Positions 2-10,784 of a stretch of 30,648 bases of DNA are shown piece after piece; within the stretch, counting starts at the first letter, position 1, and each line of letters begins with the position of its first letter. The DNA lies in the IMG/VR virus record IMGVR_UViG_2608642106_000003. One strand, 5' to 3'. The notes under the pieces are model-generated. The model saw only the letters and a program-made list of their open reading frames with translations. It was not told the origin of the DNA and ran no database searches. The position numbers and the translations under genes were made by a program. The stretch is from a virus (lineage: Duplodnaviria > Heunggongvirae > Uroviricota > Caudoviricetes).

Positions 2-568
2 TTAGCCTCTTATCTTGAATTCTGCTATAACTTTGCCGATGAATACAAGGTCATTAATGTTCATATCAACAATGATATTCCCATAGTTAATCTTAACTTT
101 ATTATCAGGAATTCTAATAACTTGTTTTATAGAATGCTTTCCATCAATGGAGATTAACCAATCACCATCAACTACATCTGTGAAATCCCTCTCAATAAAA
201 TAAGAGTTATTCCCGTTTGATATCACAGATGGTGATGATAAACCATCAGGAATGAACACTTTGTCAAACATTAGTGTTCCTGCATCCAATAGCACTCCAT
301 CAATCAATTTTATTTTTTGAATATTGATGATGTCAGAAGTTAAATATTCATGTTTAGGAGGTAAGCCTGTTACCAGCCACTTTATGTTTACTCCTGTTTC
401 GAGCGCGCACTGAATAACCCAATCAGAAGGGAATGAATCTCTCATGTAGCGTGTAGCAAGACTGCTTTTTGATATGCCTAGTTGTTCACATAACGCCTGT
501 CTTGTAGTGAACCCATAGGCTTCAACCATCCTTTCGATAGCTTTCTTTCCACCTTGACTAAAATCCAT
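2..568 (-). CDS. Phage immunity repressor (186 CI-like, N-terminal helix-turn-helix)
   Basis: ORF 2..673 on minus strand; preferred ATG at 566-568 (MDFSQGGKKAIERMVEAYGFTTRQALCEQLGISKSSL...), ~188 aa; HTH-like segment near N-terminus; transcribed divergently from the early lytic operon as in P2/186 immunity regions. Confidence 0.65.
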   Translation of the reverse strand: MDFSQGGKKAIERMVEAYGFTTRQALCEQLGISKSSLATRYMRDSFPSDWVIQCALETGVNIKWLVTGLPPKHEYLTSDIINIQKIKLIDGVLLDAGTLMFDKVFIPDGLSSPSVISNGNNSYFIERDFTDVVDGDWLISIDGKHSIKQVIRIPDNKVKINYGNIIVDMNINDLVFIGKVIAEFKIRG

Positions 569-1666: not shown

Positions 1667-1971
1667 GACCCGGTGAACGCCTGAATGGACTTAATCATAT
1701 TGCGGAGTTAAGGGCGAAAGTTTTTGGTTTGAATATTGAGTCAGAGCTTGAGCGGTTTATTAAAGATATGCGTGATCCTCGGGATATCAATAATGAACAA
1801 AATAAACGGGCACTGGCTGCCATATTCTTTATGGCAAAAATTCCAGCTGAACGTCATAGCATCAGCATTAATGAGCTGACCACTGACGAAAAGCGGGAGT
1901 TGATTAAAGCAATGAATCATTTTCGTGCAGTGGTGAGCTTATTTCCCAGACGGCTAACCATGCCGAATTAA
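1630..1971 (+). CDS. Early-region hypothetical protein
   Basis: 113-aa ORF, ATG 1630 preceded by GGGGGAA; overlaps the upstream gene by 37 nt. Confidence 0.4.
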   Translation: MAIEGAAATVPLRPGERLNGLNHIAELRAKVFGLNIESELERFIKDMRDPRDINNEQNKRALAAIFFMAKIPAERHSISINELTTDEKRELIKAMNHFRAVVSLFPRRLTMPN

Positions 1972-2038
1972 CCAACTAATGAAATTAATGGCGTAAACCC
2001 GCCGGGCATCCCTTTATCTAAATTCAGGAGAATTGCTT

Positions 2039-2272
2039 ATGCGTAATATTGAAACCCTCACGACCAAAACCGGACCGGATGATGCAGGTCTTAATCTTTT
2101 ACTGACAGAGGCTCGTCTGGAAGAACGCCGGGCAAGGGCTGAAGCAATGGCTGCTCGCCTCGATAGCCTGGCGTGTCATATCACCTCCCGCCAGCTAAAC
2201 CACGTCGAAGCGGCAGAACTGCTGCGTGTGACTGCTGAAGCAATCCAGAACGAAGCGCAGGAGATCCACTGA
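2039..2272 (+). CDS. Early-region hypothetical protein (helical, charged)
   Basis: ATG 2039 preceded by AGGAG at 2026-2030; the ORF-track start at 2033 is a TTG. Confidence 0.45.
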   Translation: MRNIETLTTKTGPDDAGLNLLLTEARLEERRARAEAMAARLDSLACHITSRQLNHVEAAELLRVTAEAIQNEAQEIH

Positions 2273-2499
2273 TGGCTGATGCAATGGATCTCGTACAGCA
2301 GCGCGTTGAAGAAGAACGCCAACGCCATATCCGTGCTGCCCGTGCCAAAACGCCGGGCGTGTCCCGCGTGCTTTGCGTTGAGTGTGAAGCGCCAATTCCG
2401 CCAGCACGCCGCCGTGCCATTCCGGGTGTGCAGCTTTGCATTACCTGTCAGGAAATCGCAGAGCTGAAAGGCAAACATTACAACGGAGGTGCTGTATGA
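2272..2499 (+). CDS. TraR/DksA-type C4 zinc-finger protein
   Basis: 75 aa with CxxC...CxxC (CVEC ... CITC); start overlaps upstream stop (ATGA). Confidence 0.6.
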   Translation: MADAMDLVQQRVEEERQRHIRAARAKTPGVSRVLCVECEAPIPPARRRAIPGVQLCITCQEIAELKGKHYNGGAV

Positions 2500-3350
2500 G
2501 CACCATCCTGAAATGGGCAGGAAATAAAACCGCCATAATGTCCGAACTGAAAAAGCATCTTCCTGCTGGCCCGCGACTGGTTGAACCTTTCGCGGGTTCC
2601 TGTGCAGTGATGATGGAGACGGATTACCCCAGCTATCTTGTTGCGGATATTAATCCTGATTTAATCAACCTCTATAAAAAGGTTGCTGCTGATTGTGAGG
2701 CGTTTATATCTCGTGCCAGAGCTTTATTTGAGGAAGCAAACAGGGAGGTGGCTTATTACAACATAAGGCAGGAGTTTAATTACTCCACTGAAATTACTGA
2801 TTTCATGAAAGCGGTATATTTCCTGTATCTCAATCGTCACGGTTACCGTGGTTTATGTCGCTATAACAAGAGCGGGCATTTCAACATTCCCTACGGTAAT
2901 TATAAAAATCCGTATTTCCCTGAAAAAGAAATTCGCGCATTTGCAGAGAAAGCCCAGCGGGCAACGTTTATCTGCGCCAGCTTTGATGAAACGCTGGCGA
3001 TGTTGAAGGTGGGGGATGTGGTGTATTGCGATCCGCCTTATGACGGTACGTTTTCCGGCTATCACACTGATGGTTTCACTGAAGATGATCAGTATCACCT
3101 GGCATCCATTCTTGAACATCGGTCATCAGAAGGACATCCGGTCATTGTTTCTAACAGTAACACGTCTTTGACCCGGTCCCTTTATCGTAATTTCACTCAC
3201 CACTACATCAGGGCGAAACGCAGCATCGGCGTTGCAGCGGGGGAGGGAAAATTTGCAACAGAGATGATTGCCACTAAATCTGCTAATTGGTTTAGTGCCG
3301 ATTTTAGTAGGGGACGTGACTCTACTGTTATTTTCGGGGTGCAAGTGTGA
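2496..3350 (+). CDS. dam: DNA adenine methyltransferase (Dam family, GATC-specific by family)
   Basis: N-terminus [12 protein letters not shown] and catalytic DPPY motif ([10 protein letters not shown]); GGAGG RBS 2485-2489; start overlaps zinc-finger gene stop. Confidence 0.85.
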
Positions 3351-4177
3351 AAGAAATGCACCACGGAATTCATCATTTCCATGGGACGCCTGTCTGGGGA
3401 AGTGCTGGCGACGTTCATCGTATTGCGGTGAGCGGAGCTGGCGCTTTCGTCTCCTATGTACGACCAGATCAGATTGCGGCGTCCATTCAGCACGCTCAGG
3501 TCGTCGGCATTGATAACGGCGCATTTTCTGCATGGGTGCGTGGGCTAAAAATTAACTGGAGTGATTTTTATAAATGGCTCCTGAACTATTACCACCATCC
3601 TAAGGTCGCTTTTTTTGTCATTCCTGATGTTGTGGACGGAGGTGAACGTGACAATGATGCCCTGATAAACGAAGTTCCGAAAATGTTCTACGGGAAGGCA
3701 ACTCCCGTCTGGCATCTGCACGAGTCAATCGATCGGCTTATCGAGCTATGTCGTGAATGGCCTCGTGTCTGCTTTGGATCGTCTGGTGAATATGCGGCTA
3801 TCAGAACTGCGCACTGGCATCGTCGTATGCAGGACGCTTTTGAAGCAATTTATTGCCGACACAATTTCAAAACAGCTGTTCATGGTTTGCGCATGCTTGA
3901 CGGTCGTGTGTTGGGAAATTACCCACTGGCGACTGCCGACAGTACAAATCTTGCCTGCAATGTCCCCAAATTTAATAGCAAATATCCTGAGCTGACGCGG
4001 GCTATTCAGGAGGCTGAGTATTCGCGCAATCTGACGGAAAAGGAGCTGAAAGCTGTCATTCTGAAAAACCGTTGCGCAATTTTAAAAGGTGCAATTGAAG
4101 CTGTTCGCCCACCTTCAGTTTCTGATTGGCTGTCGAATGGTTTGCAGCCTTCACAGCTCGAACTGGAGATTGCGTAA
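3347..4177 (+). CDS. Hypothetical protein translationally coupled to dam; possible nucleic-acid-modification enzyme
   Basis: GTG 3347 overlaps dam stop (GTGA); alternative ATG at 3356. 276 aa, His-rich N-terminus; stop overlaps gene A start (TAATG). Confidence 0.5.
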
Positions 4178-6549
4178 TGAACTACAGCTATTCCTGGAAT
4201 GCTGAGAAAAAAGCAATCAATCCTTACGTAGAGACGGAAGAGCAATCTTCAGTTTCTGCGCTTTCAAACCTGATCGCTCTGTACGCTGCCGATAACGAGC
4301 AGGAACAGCTGCGCCGCGAGGCACTGAGTGATCAGGTCTGGGAGCGTTATTTCTTTAATGAATCCCGTGATCCTGTCCAGCGCGAAATGGAGCAGGATAA
4401 GCTCATTAGTCGGGCAAAGCTGGCGCATGAGCAGCAGCGTTTTAATCCAGATATGGTCATTCTGGCGGACGTTAATGCCCAGCCTTCCCATATCAGCAAG
4501 CCACTGATGCAACGTATTGAATACTTCAGCAGCCTGGGCAGGCCAAAGGCTTATTCCCGCTATTTGCGTGAGACGATTAAGCCATGTCTGGAACGGCTGG
4601 AGCATGTACGCGACTGTCAGCTATCCACTTCTTTTCGCTTTATGGCAAGCCATGAAGGGCTGGACGGCCTGCTGATCCTGCCTGAAATGAGTCAGGATCA
4701 GGTGAAACGCCTGTCCACCCTGGTAGCTGCGCATATGAGCATGTGCCTTGATGCAGCTTGTGGCGATTTGTATGTCACCGATGACGTTAAGCCAGAAGAA
4801 ATCCGCAAGACATGGGAAAAGGTGGCAGCGGAAACCCTGCGTCTGGATGTCATCCCGCCTGCGTTTGAGCAACTCCGCCGGAAAAGAAACCGCCGTAAAC
4901 CCGTGCCCTATGAACTCATTCCGGGTTCGCTGGCGCGTATGTTGTGCGCTGACTGGTGGTACCGGAAATTATGGAAGATGCGTTGCGAATGGCGGGAAGA
5001 GCAGTTGCGTGCTGTCTGCCTGGTCAGCAAAAAAGCATCTCCCTATGTCAGCTATGAAGCCGTGATGCATAAACGTGAGCAGCGCCGTAAGTCGCTGGAG
5101 TTTTTTCGTTCTCATGAACTGGTGAACGAAGACGGCGACACGCTGGACATGGAGGATGTGGTAAACGCCAGCAGCAGCAACCCTGCGCATCGCCGCAATG
5201 AGATGATGGCCTGTGTTAAAGGCCTGGAGCTTATCGCGGAAATGCGCGGTGACTGCGCCGTTTTCTACACCATCACCTGTCCGTCACGTTTCCATTCCAC
5301 GCTAAATAATGGCAGGCCCAACCCAACTTGGACAAATGCGACGGTAAGACAAAGCAGTGATTATCTGGTCGGCATGTTTGCTGCATTTCGTAAGGCGATG
5401 CACAAAGCCGGATTGCGGTGGTATGGCGTGCGGGTGGCTGAGCCGCATCATGACGGTACAGTTCACTGGCACCTGTTGTGTTTTATGCGCAAAAAAGACC
5501 GCCGCGCCATCACTGCATTACTGCGTAAGTTTGCCATCCGTGAAGACCGCGAGGAACTGGGCAATAACACTGGGCCGCGCTTTAAGTCTGAGTTGATTAA
5601 CCCGCGCAAAGGTACGCCAACAAGCTACATCGCGAAATACATCAGTAAGAACATTGACGGGCGTGGTCTGGCTGGCGAGATCAGCAAGGAAACGGGGAAA
5701 TCCCTGCGTGATAATGCTGAATACGTTAATGCCTGGGCGTCTCTGCATCGTGTTCAGCAATTCCGCTTCTTTGGCATTCCGGGGCGTCAGGCTTACCGTG
5801 AACTGCGATTGCTGGCTGGTCAGGCGGCAAGGCAACAGGGGGACAAAAAAGCAGGTGCGCCGGTACTGGATAACCCGCGCCTTGATGCCATCCTGGCTGC
5901 TGCTGATGCTGGTTGTTTTGCCACCTACATCATGAAGCAGGGCGGCGTACTGGTTCCCCGCAAATATCACCTCATCAGAACCGCTTATGAAATCAACGAA
6001 GAGCCGACCGCCTATGGCGATCACGGCATTCGTATTTATGGCATCTGGTCACCTATTGCAGAGGGCAAGATCTGCACTCATGCCGTGAAGTGGAAAATGG
6101 TTCGTAAGGCCGTTGATGTTCAGGAGGCGGCAGCCGACCAGGGCGCTTGCGCCCCTTGGACTCGTGGCAATAACTGTCCCCTTGCTGAAAATTTGAACCA
6201 ACAGGAGAAAGATAAATCAGCTGATGGGGGCACCAGAACGGACATTACCCGCATGGATGACAAGCAGTTGCACGATTACCTGCACAGTATGAGCAAAAAA
6301 GAGCGCCGGGAACTGGCAGCAAGGTTACGCCTGGTTAAACCGAAACGGCGTAAAGACTACAAACAGCGAATTACAGACCATCAGCGACTGCAGCTCGTCT
6401 ATGAGCTGAAGTCCAGAGGATTTGATGGTAGCGAGAAAGAGGTCGATTTACTCCTTCGCGGCGGCAGTATTCCGTCAGGAGCAGGCCTGCGTATCTTCTA
6501 TCGGAACCAGCGTTTGCAGGAAGATGATAAGTGGCGAAACCTGTATTAA
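4177..6549 (+). CDS. A: Rolling-circle replication initiation endonuclease (P2 gpA family)
   Basis: 790 aa from ATG 4177; HUH-like motif ([10 protein letters not shown]) and tyrosine motif (YIAKYISKN); position as P2 gene A. Confidence 0.85.
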
Positions 6550-6643
6550 TTACGCGGGTTAACAATTCGTGCTCTTAATAATACCAGGCATATCAGGCTG
6601 ATGAACGTAAAAAAACGTTTTACATCAGTAAGATTATTATATA

Positions 6644-6659
6644 CTGTAAATATAAACAG
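6644..6659. promoter_or_regulatory. LexA (SOS) box overlapping a promoter
   Basis: CTGTAAATATAAACAG matches CTGT-N8-ACAG with AT-rich spacer; TTTACA at 6619-6624 upstream; precedes ORFs 6702 and 6902. Confidence 0.6.
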
Positions 6660-6701
6660 TGGTTATATTTACAGTATTGCTTTGGTGTCATAGGAGGAAA
6701 G

Positions 6702-6890
6702 ATGCAGGACTATTTTTTGGAGTCTTTGAAGCTCCAGCGCATTGATTTTTTTCTTAAGCTTGTAGCGGCTAGTGAGTGTAGTGATGAAGAGAAGGGGCTG
6801 GCTTTGCAGTGGGTTTCTGAACTAACAGATGAACTCATGGCAAAAATCAGAACCCACGAATACAACCGCTCAATGGATGTCATCAGTTGA
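6702..6890 (+). CDS. Small SOS-controlled protein, candidate Tum-like antirepressor
   Basis: 62-aa ORF with AGGAGG RBS directly downstream of the LexA box; position matches the LexA-controlled tum locus of 186-type phages. Confidence 0.4.
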   Translation: MQDYFLESLKLQRIDFFLKLVAASECSDEEKGLALQWVSELTDELMAKIRTHEYNRSMDVIS

Positions 6891-6901
6891 GGTGACTTTT
6901 T

Positions 6902-7135
6902 ATGCGCATTGAAATAATGATCGATAAAGAGCAGAAGATTAGCCAGTCTACCCTGGACGCCCTTGAATCCGAGCTTTACCGCAATCTGCGTCCTCTGTAT
7001 CCCAAAACGGTAATTCGTATCCGCAAAGGTAGCTCTAACGGTGTGGAACTGACCGGATTGCAACTGGACGAAGAAAGAAAACAAGTGATGAAAATTATGC
7101 AGAAGGTGTGGGAAGACGACAGCTGGCTGCATTAA
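6902..7135 (+). CDS. dinI: DinI-family damage-inducible protein
   Basis: 77 aa starting MRIEIMIDKEQKISQSTLDALESELYRNL..., closely resembling DinI (MRIEV...); GAGGTG RBS. Confidence 0.75.
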   Translation: MRIEIMIDKEQKISQSTLDALESELYRNLRPLYPKTVIRIRKGSSNGVELTGLQLDEERKQVMKIMQKVWEDDSWLH

Positions 7136-7405: not shown

Positions 7406-7621
7406 ATGTCAAGCATCGCCGCATTTAGCCTGGGTAACCCAGTTGAACGTCTGGCAAGGGTTCTTAAAGAGAACCAGGACAAACTCAATCTTAGTAAAGA
7501 TGGTTTTGTGTCCGTAGACTTGTCTAACAAAAGAGCAATGGATGCCATCAAGGCACAGATGGATAAGCTTGAAGGCATCAAAACGAGCACTGTAAAAGAG
7601 AAAACTAATAGAACCAGATAA
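7406..7621 (+). CDS. Small hydrophilic hypothetical protein (cargo, first gene of 2-gene operon)
   Basis: 71 aa, strong RBS AAGGGGGAG before ATG 7406; stop overlaps downstream start (TAATG); AT-rich. Confidence 0.45.
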   Translation: MSSIAAFSLGNPVERLARVLKENQDKLNLSKDGFVSVDLSNKRAMDAIKAQMDKLEGIKTSTVKEKTNRTR

Positions 7622-8463
7622 TGGCAACATTACTTTTAGCAGTGATTTTGGTTAGTGGTTTTATTTATGTAAACCTATCACTTTCAACAAGATACCGATA
7701 TAAGCGTTCCAACGGCTGGGACGCTTATTTTTTTGTGGCTGCCTGGGGTATCGTTTTTTTTCTCCTTGGCGGTTTTTTCACCTTTATTTTGAACGTCAGC
7801 GGAGGGTTTCGTTGGCTGGCTAATGCCTTGAATCTAACACCTGACAGTTTTAATGGCATGTTGTCTTCATCGAAAGACAAACTTCAAAGAATAAATGAAA
7901 TCAAACAGATAGCATGGGTTATGATTTCAATTGTCCTCGCTGCGATTTCAGGTTTTGGAAATAAGTTACGCACATCACGTGGAGATCGTCGCTGGGATGC
8001 CTTAGCTAAAGCTGTGGGTAATAACGCTTTCGAATCATTACTCATGGAAGCGTCCGCAAGACAGTTTCCGATCATAGCAACTCTGTCGTCTCGCAAAATC
8101 TATGTTGGTCTTGTTACTTGTCCGGCGTTAGAAAACGGGCTTTCAGAGCACCTTGAACTTCTCCCGATGTTAAGCGGATATCGGGATAAAGATGATCTAA
8201 CGATTAGTATCACGACTAACTATCACCAACATTATCTTGATAGTGGTGTGATAAGTGGAATGTCTCGGCTTAATATCGAAGATTTCCGTGTGCTCATACC
8301 AAAAGATGAGGTTGAAACAATTTCGTTTTTTGATACTGAGACATATAACAAATTTAAAGAAAATGAAGCCAGGGATAGAAAGAACTGTCGAAAGATTGAT
8401 AGTAAAAGTGCATCTTCGCGCAGCAAGCGTGCAGCAGATGCTGAGTCAAATGATCGTGCATGA
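7621..8463 (+). CDS. Integral membrane protein with soluble C-terminal domain (cargo)
   Basis: 280 aa; three hydrophobic helices (approx. residues 3-20, 36-58, 96-113) then ~165-aa hydrophilic region; translationally coupled to 7406..7621. Confidence 0.55.
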   Translation: MATLLLAVILVSGFIYVNLSLSTRYRYKRSNGWDAYFFVAAWGIVFFLLGGFFTFILNVSGGFRWLANALNLTPDSFNGMLSSSKDKLQRINEIKQIAWVMISIVLAAISGFGNKLRTSRGDRRWDALAKAVGNNAFESLLMEASARQFPIIATLSSRKIYVGLVTCPALENGLSEHLELLPMLSGYRDKDDLTISITTNYHQHYLDSGVISGMSRLNIEDFRVLIPKDEVETISFFDTETYNKFKENEARDRKNCRKIDSKSASSRSKRAADAESNDRA

Positions 8464-8511
8464 CTATGCTGCATGAGATCGCATGATCGTTTGAGGATCG
8501 TTTTTGCTAGG

Positions 8512-8538
8512 GCCCGCCAGAACTGGCGGGCTTTCGCG
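8512..8538 (+). terminator. Putative intrinsic terminator after membrane-protein gene
   Basis: GCCCGCCAG/CTGGCGGGC inverted repeat (8512-8531) followed by CTTTCGCG; U-tract weak. Confidence 0.35.
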
Positions 8539-8580
8539 TAGATCATGCACCTGCATGAAAACTACTACATAAAGCGGGCA

Positions 8581-8600
8581 GGCGTGGCGGGGATACGAGC
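8581..8600. other. cos-like cohesive-end site
   Basis: GGCGTGGCGGGGATACGAGC followed by GCGCGCTCACTGAC...TTTTCAG resembles the P2 left-end cohesive sequence as recalled from memory. Confidence 0.4.
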
Positions 8601-8675
8601 GCGCGCTCACTGACAGTTTTCAGAAAAGTATATATAATCGCCTGAAAGATCTATACGTGCAGTGGAAATCATCAA

Positions 8676-9710
8676 ATGGATAAAAGATATCAGGTTTTTG
8701 TTAGTTCAACTTTTGCTGATCTTGAAGAAGAAAGGCAGGAAGTAATGCAAGCACTGCTGGAGCTTGATTGTATGCCAGCAGGAATGGAATTATTTCCAGC
8801 AACAAATAGTGATCAGTGGAGTTTAATAAAAAAAATAATTGACGATAGTGATTATTATATTGTTATCTTGGCAGGGCGTTATGGTTCAATTGGTCCTGAT
8901 GGAATAAGCTATACAGAAATGGAGTATCGTTATGCTTTGGAAACTGGTAAGCCAGTTATAGGTTTTATTCATAAAGATAAAAGTAACCTCCCCGCAAAAC
9001 GTTGTGAGTCAAACCCTGAAGGCGTAGAAAAACTAAAGGCTTTCGAAGAGCTAGTTAAAACAAAATTATGTCGTTTTTGGGAGTCTCCTGCAGAGTTAGG
9101 TAGCCAGGTTAGCAGAAGTTTGATTAGACTAATTAAAGAATGTCCTGCAATTGGGTGGGTTAAAGGAAATTTAGTAACTAATGATGGTGATGCAAAGGAA
9201 ATATTGAAATTAAAAAGGCGAATTGAGGAGCTTGAAAGTCAACTTGTATCAAGTATGACTGAAGCGCCTGCAGGTGCAGAAAAACTATCTCAAGGAGATG
9301 AGCTTTTTGAATTGGATTATGAATTCTGTGTGTCGCCTACAGAATGGAGACATAATGGTGAAGAATATACCGATAAGGTCAAATTAAGCTGGAACGATAT
9401 TTTTTCATATGTTTCGCCTTTGATGATAGATGAGATAGTGGATGATAAGCTATATAGTGCTTTAAATAACTGTGTGCGAAATGCAGTTCAAGATATCATC
9501 TATGAGGATTTTAAAGATATGAATTTATTATCTTTAAAAGTATCTAATTCTGATTTCCAAACAATAAAAGTGCAGTTTAGGGCGCTTGGGTTAATTATTA
9601 AAAGTGAAAAGAGTAGAAGTGTTAAAGATAAAGGTACTTATTGGACTTTAACACCGTATGGCGAAAATTTAATGACAACATTGAGAGCGATTAAAAAAAC
9701 TTTGGTATAG
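8676..9710 (+). CDS. DUF4062-like N-terminal domain protein, candidate anti-phage effector (cargo)
   Basis: 344 aa; N-terminus YQVFVSSTFADLEEERQEV matches the signature I associate with DUF4062; coiled-coil-like KEILKLKRRIEELESQL; unassigned C-terminal domain; AT-rich. Confidence 0.6.
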   Translation: MDKRYQVFVSSTFADLEEERQEVMQALLELDCMPAGMELFPATNSDQWSLIKKIIDDSDYYIVILAGRYGSIGPDGISYTEMEYRYALETGKPVIGFIHKDKSNLPAKRCESNPEGVEKLKAFEELVKTKLCRFWESPAELGSQVSRSLIRLIKECPAIGWVKGNLVTNDGDAKEILKLKRRIEELESQLVSSMTEAPAGAEKLSQGDELFELDYEFCVSPTEWRHNGEEYTDKVKLSWNDIFSYVSPLMIDEIVDDKLYSALNNCVRNAVQDIIYEDFKDMNLLSLKVSNSDFQTIKVQFRALGLIIKSEKSRSVKDKGTYWTLTPYGENLMTTLRAIKKTLV

Positions 9711-9712
9711 AT

Positions 9713-9746
9713 AACAAAGGCCGTTCATATATGAACGGCCTTTGTT
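9713..9746. terminator. Bidirectional intrinsic terminator between converging cargo gene and portal gene
   Basis: Perfect inverted repeat AACAAAGGCCGTTCATAT/ATATGAACGGCCTTTGTT, followed by GTTTTATTG on plus strand. Confidence 0.55.
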
Positions 9747-10784
9747 TTATTGTGTGGGAAAGCTATATGATTCGAATTTTATAATAACTTTACCAAGCCA
9801 TTTATTTACTTCTTGTATATGCTTTTGCAGTGGTGTTAGCTCATTTCGCACAAAGACGCGGCTGGCCTTCTCCACATCCCCAAACCCCCCGACATTATTA
9901 GGCATAATCCCCATCATTTGCGGCGGCACGCGGTGCGCAGCCATCATGTCATCACGGCTCACGTTTTTGATATTCAGAAACTCATCCTTCGCTGCGACTT
10001 CTGACAACGGGATAATCTGAAGTCCGTCCTTTTTGCCGTTAGGCGAGTACATAAACAGATTGCGGAAGTTGCCAGGGCCTTTGGAGCTTTTCATCGCATT
10101 GCGGAGGTTGTTCACATCCTCCTGGTTCTGCGCGGCATCGGTCATGTACATGATGAAGCCTGCATGACTACCGTTAATGTAATACTTGCGGCGGAACAGC
10201 GTGGCGGATTCGTTGAGCAGGGCTGACGGAATGGCAGAAAGATAACCGGGCAGGCCGTAGATCTCCTGGTTGATGTCCGGTTCCATCAGATGAAAAATAC
10301 TGCCTTTCGTGAACTGATACGGTTGCGTGGTCATGCCGTATTGCACAAACCAGTAGGTATCCAGGTCTAACCCGCGTCGGGTGTATTTTGCCAGGGCAGG
10401 TTCAAGGGCGATAACTTCACCGAAGCGGTTCGTGCGTTTTTCCAGGTAGGCGTTACCAAATACCAGATAGTCCTGCACAAAACGTGAAAACGCCTGCTGG
10501 CTGAGCAACGGGTGAGGGATATAGGTGCTGGTCAGAATATTGCACTTTACTGCAATCGGTGAGCTGTGATGCACGGCGGCGCGGAAGGTTCGCGCCAGTC
10601 CGTCAAAACTCACTGGCGGCTCATACCAGCGATCTGTCTGTACGCATTCCACATAGTCCAGCAGTTCGCGGCGGTCCAGTACTGGAATGGGATCGCCGAA
10701 GCTGAATGCTTCGGCTGAAGTCTGGCTTTTATGCTGGGTCTGGTTCTGCGACGCAGCGCGGTTCTTCTTACTCTTTCCCATCAA
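9747..10784 (-). CDS. Q: Portal protein (P2 gpQ family)
   Basis: 345 aa on minus strand, immediately downstream of and overlapping terminase gene; order Q-P opposite O-N-M-L as in P2. Confidence 0.9.
   Translation of the reverse strand: MMGKSKKNRAASQNQTQHKSQTSAEAFSFGDPIPVLDRRELLDYVECVQTDRWYEPPVSFDGLARTFRAAVHHSSPIAVKCNILTSTYIPHPLLSQQAFSRFVQDYLVFGNAYLEKRTNRFGEVIALEPALAKYTRRGLDLDTYWFVQYGMTTQPYQFTKGSIFHLMEPDINQEIYGLPGYLSAIPSALLNESATLFRRKYYINGSHAGFIMYMTDAAQNQEDVNNLRNAMKSSKGPGNFRNLFMYSPNGKKDGLQIIPLSEVAAKDEFLNIKNVSRDDMMAAHRVPPQMMGIMPNNVGGFGDVEKASRVFVRNELTPLQKHIQEVNKWLGKVIIKFESYSFPTQ

Follow-up and report, generated by a model that had tools for sequence, protein, structure and literature searches.

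The DUF4062 domain has been described as a TIR-like NADase (Osinski et al. 2026, bioRxiv 10.64898/2026.05.01.722283). Five single-gene proteins, chosen for the similarity of their AUX domains, were tested in that work, and strong, broad defence was reported for the Klebsiella pneumoniae protein (the Swarozyc protein KpSwz) and for a protein labelled ‘Enterobacteriaceae/E. coli’, both of which protect E. coli against BASEL phages. [quoted passage not shown] Swarozyc defence is abortive, requires residue E97 and the AUX domain, and goes with a drop in NAD+ once a phage infects. Escapers of Bas14 carry their changes in the portal, a protein that switches on the NADase in vitro; the ligand sensed by KpSwz is the portal dodecamer. 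The same authors remarked that identical sequences occur in several genera beside different defence systems; the supplement to their report gives neither sequences nor RefSeq identifiers (all from 10.64898/2026.05.01.722283).

Further systems use the same domain. Le Mouellic et al. (2026, 10.64898/2026.09.04.749371), who renamed DUF4062 as NIR, showed that PsAvs2, Vulcan and Vesta work by this chemistry too but answer to different triggers: the terminase for PsAvs2, lambdap79 for Vulcan and the A1 nuclease pathway for Vesta. These three share with the Swarozyc family the effector domain, a Glu-dependent depletion of NAD+ and the abortive phenotype, but their sensors consist of STAND plus TPR, of HEAT repeats, or of a small ligand-binding domain plus an alkaline phosphatase. 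Evangelion (Eva01), found on S. aureus plasmids, has escaper mutations that implicate replication proteins rather than the portal, and Swarozyc was placed in a lineage separate from it (Ibarra-Chavez et al. 2026, 10.64898/2026.06.25.731849). The canonical TIR NADases, such as Thoeris ThsB and SPARTA TIR-APAZ, resemble these proteins in their flavodoxin-like TIR fold and catalytic Glu. However, DUF4062 is a separate family, and the published dimer interface (AB) of KpSwz differs from that of the canonical enzymes.

The stretch of DNA analysed here (the window; 30,648 nt) is, from its sequence, a 186/P2-like prophage of E. coli, whose genes include those for CI, CII, Fil, the replication endonuclease A, a DinI/Tum-like protein, the portal, the terminase, the scaffold and the capsid. 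It carries a DUF4062 gene whose product is named WP_001513676.1, ‘DUF4062 domain-containing protein’, in RefSeq. This gene is very probably a single-gene abortive-infection defence of the Swarozyc family, accessory cargo of a P2/186-like E. coli prophage lying in the cos-portal part of the gpA-gpQ hotspot. The first-pass annotation had put it forward as a candidate anti-phage effector; homology to KpSwz over the full length, from which a defence function of the protein is inferred, supports that proposal. The features of the locus are collected in Table 1.

Table 1. Features of the DUF4062 gene, of its product and of the flanking cos and portal regions in the window
Feature	Position	Strand	Remarks
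Conserved cos segment, left anchor of the cargo cassette	8456..8607	+	Aligns to the phage 186 cos junction
19-nt cohesive-end sequence GGCGTGGCGGGGATACGAG	8581..8599	+	cos cut site by homology to 186
Sigma-70-like promoter, CTGACA-17 nt-TATAAT	8610..8638	+	Consensus scan, 11/12 matches, pattern match only
DUF4062 / Swarozyc-family gene (probable)	8676..9710	+	ATG start, 344 aa, N-terminus MDKRYQVFVSSTFADLEEERQEV
DUF4062 / TIR-like domain, predicted NADase	residues 1 to about 165		Q47, W48, predicted catalytic E83-Y84
Stalk helix	residues 170-195		AlphaFold2-predicted
Winged-helix AUX domain, predicted sensor	residues about 201-344		Variable modules 218-236, 256-292
Hairpin, 15-bp stem	9713..9746	.	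Terminator scan and folding
Resident-prophage portal gene, homologous to P2 gpQ and 186 W; bounds the cassette on the right	9747..10784	-	Pfam Phage_portal (PF04860), E=1.3e-17

The open reading frame was confirmed as first called, with the same length and N-terminus, and no competing frame of at least 40 aa overlapped it on either strand. Its low G+C content, at first estimated from samples, was measured at 0.349 (GC3, 0.246) by composition count, against 0.51-0.57 in the flanking genes (0.51 in the portal gene, whose GC3 was 0.607, and 0.568 in the terminase gene) and 0.518 in the window as a whole. The base composition of the gene is therefore clearly foreign to its surroundings. The putative promoter lies within the cassette, 38 nt 5′ of the start codon. 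The hairpin that follows the gene had a folding energy of -24 kcal/mol on either strand (z=-8.2 and -9.3) and is followed by the T-run TTTTATTG. The DUF4062 and portal genes converge on this hairpin, which is likely to be a bidirectional intrinsic terminator. Hairpin terminators had been proposed on both sides of the gene. The downstream one was thus upheld, and the upstream one is also real: an 11-bp GC stem lies within about 8509-8534 (-27.2 kcal/mol, z=-4.8 by folding; the terminator scan made no call there), where phage 186 has its terminator t95b. However, this hairpin precedes cos, so that it would close the preceding operon and does not directly flank the DUF4062 gene.

Pfam assigned residues 6-87 to DUF4062 (PF13271) over the complete profile (1-82 of 82) with E=1.5e-29 and 102 bits (cut-off, 24.7), in agreement with the N-terminal domain that had been recognised by eye. 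No Pfam TIR family (TIR, TIR_2) matched the 344-aa protein at E≤1, so any likeness to TIR lies at the level of the fold. The AlphaFold2 model (mean pLDDT, 79.7) showed an N-terminal domain of Rossmann-like, beta-alpha-beta build, a single long helix, which accounts for the coiled-coil-like stretch noted earlier, and an alpha/beta C-terminal domain modelled with high confidence. The latter had been described as a domain without assignment, and a Pfam search of residues about 201-344 indeed returned no match. Foldseek related the N-terminal part to SPARTA TIR-APAZ (the top matches), the CMP N-glycosidase BcmB, RPPT-TIR, DNPH1, TcpB and SARM1, and the C-terminal part to the winged-helix proteins TubR and FOXK1. 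The N-terminal fold is accordingly predicted to be TIR-like / nucleoside-2-deoxyribosyltransferase-like. Since the PDB library used by Foldseek (entries to April 2026) did not contain KpSwz, this search backs the TIR-like and winged-helix folds only, and the link to KpSwz rests on sequence. Other libraries were uninformative as to function. PADLOC-DB 2.0.0 (2023) gave no match for the 344-aa protein, as expected for a family named only in 2026; NCBIfam, a library that predates or omits the family, gave none either. In PHROGs, only families of unknown function were matched, phrog_15411 by the whole protein and phrog_9489 by its N-terminal half.

A search of all PDB chains gave a single significant match, KpSwz (10wc/11cq/11cv), with residues 1-341 of the query aligned to residues 2-324 of the chain (E=6.6e-69). 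BLASTP against KpSwz gave 39% identity (E=1e-82). When residues 193-344 (152 aa) were used alone as a query against the PDB, KpSwz was again the only protein found (residues 204-324, E=1.1e-8), indicating that the domain without a Pfam assignment is the Swarozyc AUX domain. Both are thus single proteins of about 340 aa in which an N-terminal DUF4062/TIR-like domain is followed by a helical stalk and a C-terminal winged-helix AUX domain. The start codon of the window gene corresponds to residue 15/16 of KpSwz, the point at which Osinski et al. began their active constructs (10.64898/2026.05.01.722283). In the structure of the KpSwz E97A mutant (10wc), the introduced alanine aligns with E83 of the window protein; E83 is therefore the counterpart of E97 and, by alignment, the catalytic Glu. 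The likeness is uneven along the chain. The TIR-like core is 51% identical (64% in the part covered by Pfam), whereas the stalk is 31% and the AUX domain just 28% identical, and the hairpin anchor is W224-R225 in place of the portal-anchoring W238-Y239 of KpSwz. These two differences in the AUX region mean that the trigger may not be the same as that of KpSwz.

Membership of the other DUF4062 systems was also considered. In the Pfam search, none of the STAND plus TPR, HEAT-repeat or ligand-binding plus alkaline phosphatase sensors of PsAvs2, Vulcan and Vesta was found in the window protein. Eva01, which is borne on pMW2-type plasmids and for which NAD+ depletion has been proposed, is likewise a single gene with a DUF4062 core and the E-Y and Q/W motifs. 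Yet tblastn against the S. aureus 20.65-kb pMW2-type plasmids aligned residues 4-163 only (39.8% identity). The AUX region is therefore unrelated to Eva01, and the protein does not belong to the Evangelion Eva01 lineage. As to the second protective protein of Osinski et al., the ‘Enterobacteriaceae/E. coli’ protein (UniParc UPI0002A39D72), it is possibly the window protein itself: its label fits the RefSeq title ‘MULTISPECIES ... [Enterobacteriaceae]’. The remark by the same authors on identical sequences recurring in several genera also favours this identity. A full-text literature search did not find WP_001513676, and cluster look-ups gave no accession for the exact 344-aa sequence.

At E≤1e-5, the relatives of the window protein number more than 6900; the 120 best-scoring ones match it over the full length with 58-74% identity. 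When one genome per species was scanned, homologues spanning the full length, with 44-64% identity, turned up in many phyla (Proteobacteria, Bacteroidota, Acidobacteriota, Planctomycetota, Firmicutes and Chloroflexota, as well as two archaeal MAGs), mostly outside P2-like phages. The window protein thus belongs to a widespread clade whose members, 45-74% identical and spread over many phyla, are closer to it than KpSwz is. Residues E83, Y84, Q47 and W48 were invariant in 44 close homologues. In a family alignment of 79 species-level homologues and the window protein, conservation among the homologues was 100% for E83, 99% for W48 and 96% for Q47. In the same alignment, the winged-helix core of the AUX domain was well conserved (frequency of the commonest residue, 0.65-0.86), with W239, Q300, W323, T326 and G329 invariant, while the commonest-residue frequency fell to 0.14-0.31 in two hypervariable stretches, residues 218-236 (mean, 0.19) and 256-292 (about 0.3), which vary more than any other part of the family. 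By alignment, the first corresponds to the hairpin anchor of KpSwz and the second, plausibly, to its alpha-loop-beta module. A conserved scaffold bearing fast-changing contact loops is what the published sensor model predicts, and this pattern therefore supports the mechanism proposed below. The pattern of variability is silent on which phage protein the window variant recognises.

These observations bear on a related possibility, namely that the protein belongs to the same family and has the same NADase effector, but that its clade senses a cue other than the portal, be it another oligomeric structural or replication protein or, via the winged helix, a nucleic acid. Such a change of trigger is conceivable, if on the whole unlikely. 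It would agree with the low identity of the AUX domain and the replacement of the anchor Tyr, with the hypervariability of the contact modules throughout the family, and with the different triggers of other DUF4062 systems (PsAvs2, Vulcan, Vesta and Eva01); the winged-helix fold is, besides, commonly a DNA-binding one. The AUX domains are nevertheless homologous, with their elements in the same order, the five proteins of Osinski et al. were picked precisely for the similarity of their AUX domains, and the portal is the only trigger mapped for the KpSwz architecture.

The position of the gene was examined next to its two anchors. The presence of a cos-like site upstream, suspected from the start, was borne out by alignment with the annotated cos of phage 186: in 186, the cos annotated at nt 1-19 reads GGCGTGGCGGGGAAAGCAT, the first 13 nt of which are the same as in the cohesive-end sequence of the window, and about 125 nt on the upstream side are conserved as well. 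All 15 further P2-like loci retrieved from E. coli have the same 19-mer. A search of the window for the 19-nt cos of P2, tolerating three mismatches at most, was negative, and the site is, from its sequence, of the 186 type. On the other side, the annotation of the portal gene agrees with the records of identical loci; this gene is outside the defence system. The statement that P2 has no gene between cos and Q proved correct for the P2 record and holds for 186 too. In both records, cos and the stop codon of the portal gene (at around nt 187-196) are only about 140-180 bp apart, with a terminator (at around nt 160-187) but no gene between them.

In other prophages with the same cos, this slot holds different cargo before the portal gene: a gene of the SieB family in locus L005, a phosphoribosyltransferase plus DprA in L006 (the ShosTA/DprA-PRTase system, which Rousset et al. 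2022, PMC9122126, validated) and a KAP-type P-loop NTPase in L007. Blastn against these three loci placed the exchange boundaries at window positions 8606-8609 and 9741-9796, that is, 7-10 nt past the cohesive-end sequence and around the portal stop codon. Consistently, 1274 of 5426 complete E. coli genomes contained a 150-nt cos segment, and the homology ended at window positions 8605-8611 in every case. The cos-to-portal segment behaves as an exchangeable slot of its own, with sharp boundaries at 8607 and about 9741. The comparison of related prophages thus showed the locus to be variable. It also lies at a known site of defence cargo, because the gpA-gpQ interval beside cos is the P2 defence hotspot (Rousset et al. 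2022, PMC9122126) and the order in the window (A gene, 4126-6549; cos; portal gene) places the DUF4062 gene between A and Q. Since the whole interval was defined as the hotspot in 2022, the cos-to-portal position was already known; P2 and 186 carry nothing there, but the use of this part of the interval for cargo is routine.

The exact protein is itself in that catalogue. P2-hotspot system #67, ‘DUF4062’, has the protein sequence WP_001513676 and 63 occurrences (Rousset et al. 2022, PMC9122126, Tables S5A/S5B), in the arrangement WP_001154434 + WP_001217575 + WP_000094764 + WP_021556032 + WP_001513676 (Table S5A). This gene order, hypothetical + DinI + hypothetical + hypothetical + DUF4062, is identical to that of the window. 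In the tables of that study, the DUF4062 entry is absent from the tested or cloned systems, and was catalogued only.

Only seven of the 5426 complete E. coli genomes carried the DUF4062 gene, against the 1274 with the cos segment, which makes it an accessory gene rather than a core gene. The identical 344-aa protein was found on 609 contigs from E. coli, Salmonella, Klebsiella and Shigella. A tblastn search of 50,697 deposited phage genomes returned no close homologue, but only an Acinetobacter gene with 23.5% identity. Ten non-redundant contexts were compared for the identical protein; in every one, the portal gene lay 36 nt 3′ of the DUF4062 gene on the opposite strand, while the side preceding cos held at least eight different cargos, or none. 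These included DUF4145, DUF2971, DUF8087, an HNH-like gene and several sets of hypothetical genes, among them the pair found in the window, which codes for proteins of 71 and 280 aa. The constant portal neighbour and the varying cargo before cos indicate a stand-alone module, with the two sides of cos exchanged independently. No partner gene was conserved across the ten contexts, in accordance with the description of the gene as standing alone. Two ideas about the upstream pair were discarded. The 71-aa and 280-aa genes do not form one system with the DUF4062 gene, since cos and a strong hairpin intervene and the DUF4062 gene is also found with many other upstream cargos or with none. The 280-aa protein, considered as a relative of 186 Orf97, proved to be unrelated to it.

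These data also weigh on two explanations in which the gene would not be a defence cargo. It might mainly serve the prophage, as an addiction or stabilisation toxin, a factor for lysis timing or superinfection exclusion, or an anti-defence enzyme clearing immune signals derived from nucleotides. Its location in a phage genome beside the packaging genes, the presence of SieB in the same slot of L005, and the resemblance of the DUF4062 fold to the nucleotide N-glycosidases BcmB and DNPH1, owing to which the substrate may not be NAD+, are all compatible with this. But a conserved partner antitoxin is absent, the upstream neighbours being variable or missing; the full-length homologues are spread over many phyla and mostly found outside P2-like phages; and those examined experimentally, KpSwz and the E. 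coli homologue, are NADase defences. A service to the prophage is thus improbable. It is harder still to believe that the gene is a passenger, inactive or in decay, without a present-day function. Its rarity among E. coli genomes and strongly foreign base composition might suggest as much, and some of the host prophages look degraded (in L011, L014 and L017 the terminase is missing beside the portal gene). The reading frame is, however, intact and keeps all the catalytic and structural invariant residues, the same sequence recurs on hundreds of contigs in four genera, and the promoter-like site and the terminator hairpin are both preserved.

The reading of the gene as a Swarozyc-family defence is therefore preferred. 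Its domain architecture, homology to KpSwz, conserved catalytic residue, variable sensor and accessory, modular genomic setting were obtained directly; what is proposed of its enzymatic activity, of abortive infection and of triggering by a portal follows the literature on its homologues. On that basis, a lysogen would express the protein from the gene's own promoter, and the protein would rest as an autoinhibited oligomer with the TIR-like DUF4062 domains paired head to head on the helical stalks. When another phage infects, the winged-helix AUX domain would bind an oligomeric phage protein (the portal dodecamer in the case of KpSwz) through contacts made by the variable hairpin and the variable alpha-loop-beta module. 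Binding would realign the stalks and open the active sites, NAD+ would be destroyed, and the infected cell would then arrest or die before the phage cycle ends, protecting the lysogen population and the prophage with it.

A prophage bearing a portal sensor must tolerate its own portal at induction, a point that counts against the preferred reading. The resident portal (PF04860) and the Bas14 portal (PF13264) showed no similarity by BLASTP. It is plausible, from this comparison of sequences, that the window protein does not recognise the resident portal; the dissimilarity is compatible with self-tolerance and is no proof of it.

The family already has a name, a structure and a mechanism, and the exact protein has been in the P2-hotspot list since 2022. 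The recognition, from raw sequence, of a gene that probably encodes a Swarozyc-type NADase defence thus adds little to knowledge. It does place the newly named Swarozyc family in the hotspot of P2-like prophages, where the identical protein has stood since 2022 without a function, and the sharp-edged exchange slot between cos and the portal gene is a small point of possible use. What is still of interest is the trigger to which this clade responds and its tolerance of the portal of the host phage, a question raised by the presence of a probable portal sensor 36 nt from the portal gene of its own prophage. A speculative and rather unlikely answer to both is that the clade, whose members keep 45-64% identity over the full length across Proteobacteria, Firmicutes, Planctomycetota and archaeal MAGs, may sense a different, very widely shared infection cue instead of the portal, and may have co-evolved with the adjacent portal of the host phage so that induction spares the host. 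If so, the locus would be a natural system in which to study how a phage-borne sensor of structural proteins discriminates self from non-self.

The cassette lying between cos and the portal gene, which holds the DUF4062 gene, showed sharp exchange boundaries when compared with other P2-like prophages, within window stretches 8456-8609 and 9741-9796. On the left, homology to these prophages stopped 7-10 nt past the 19-nt cohesive-end sequence, so that the conserved cos sequence lies nearly all on the replication-gene side; on the right, homology restarted around the portal stop codon. Each of 15 fetched E. coli P2-like prophage loci (L001, L002, L005-L007 and L010-L019) has the cohesive-end 19-mer of the window without a mismatch. 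The cohesive end of phage 186 differs from it by five mismatches among the last six positions. The coordinates of the features discussed here are collected in the table.

Features flanking the cassette, and homologues of the DUF4062 protein in metagenome-assembled genomes
Feature	Location	Strand	Remark
62-aa ORF and DinI-like gene (conserved backbone pair)	window 6702-7135	+	downstream of gene A
71-aa and 280-aa gene pair	window 7406-8463	+	overlap at ATGA junction; directly 5' of cos
Cohesive-end 19-mer GGCGTGGCGGGGATACGAG	window 8581-8599		compared with phage 186 and fetched loci
Full-length DUF4062-protein homologue	L054 (Methanothrix MAG) 6001-7035		
Full-length DUF4062-protein homologue	L085 (Methanoflexus MAG) 1712-2734		

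On the replication-gene side, the 62-aa ORF (phrog_698 in PHROGs) and the DinI-like gene (PF06183 in Pfam, E=6.6e-23), whose counterpart in phage 186 is the tum region, were found in all related loci ahead of the variable cargo. The replication endonuclease gene is a single uninterrupted ORF in the window (4126-6549); related loci have a 790-aa version with a 273-aa gene before it. In the identical prophage of strain Res13-Lact-PEB20-37-A (L001, 4476-6874, equivalent to window ~4151-6549), RefSeq labels this gene 'frameshifted', a pseudogene call that may be an annotation artefact of the variant.

The 71-aa and 280-aa genes matched phrog_9843 and phrog_3630, respectively, in PHROGs, and neither protein had a significant match in Pfam, NCBIfam or PADLOC. 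The pair has a G+C content of 0.41, and the N-terminal helices of the 280-aa protein are hydrophobic. The same pair is followed by SieB in another prophage (L005), and Table S5A of Rousset 2022 (PMC9122126) lists several different cargos preceded by the 71-aa gene (WP_000094764). The pair is a candidate for uncharacterised defence or exclusion cargo. The 280-aa protein is unrelated to 186 Orf97.

Among the ten contexts encoding the identical DUF4062 protein, three (L011, L014 and L017) had no terminase gene beside the portal gene, with tail or other genes in its place downstream of the latter. Some of the prophages carrying the DUF4062 gene are therefore rearranged or degraded.

Full-length homologues of the DUF4062 protein, with ~48-52% identity, were found in more than ten bacterial phyla and also on contigs putatively assigned to archaeal MAGs, for which binning error is possible. 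Such conservation of the whole protein, sensor domain included, is unusually high for a defence protein.
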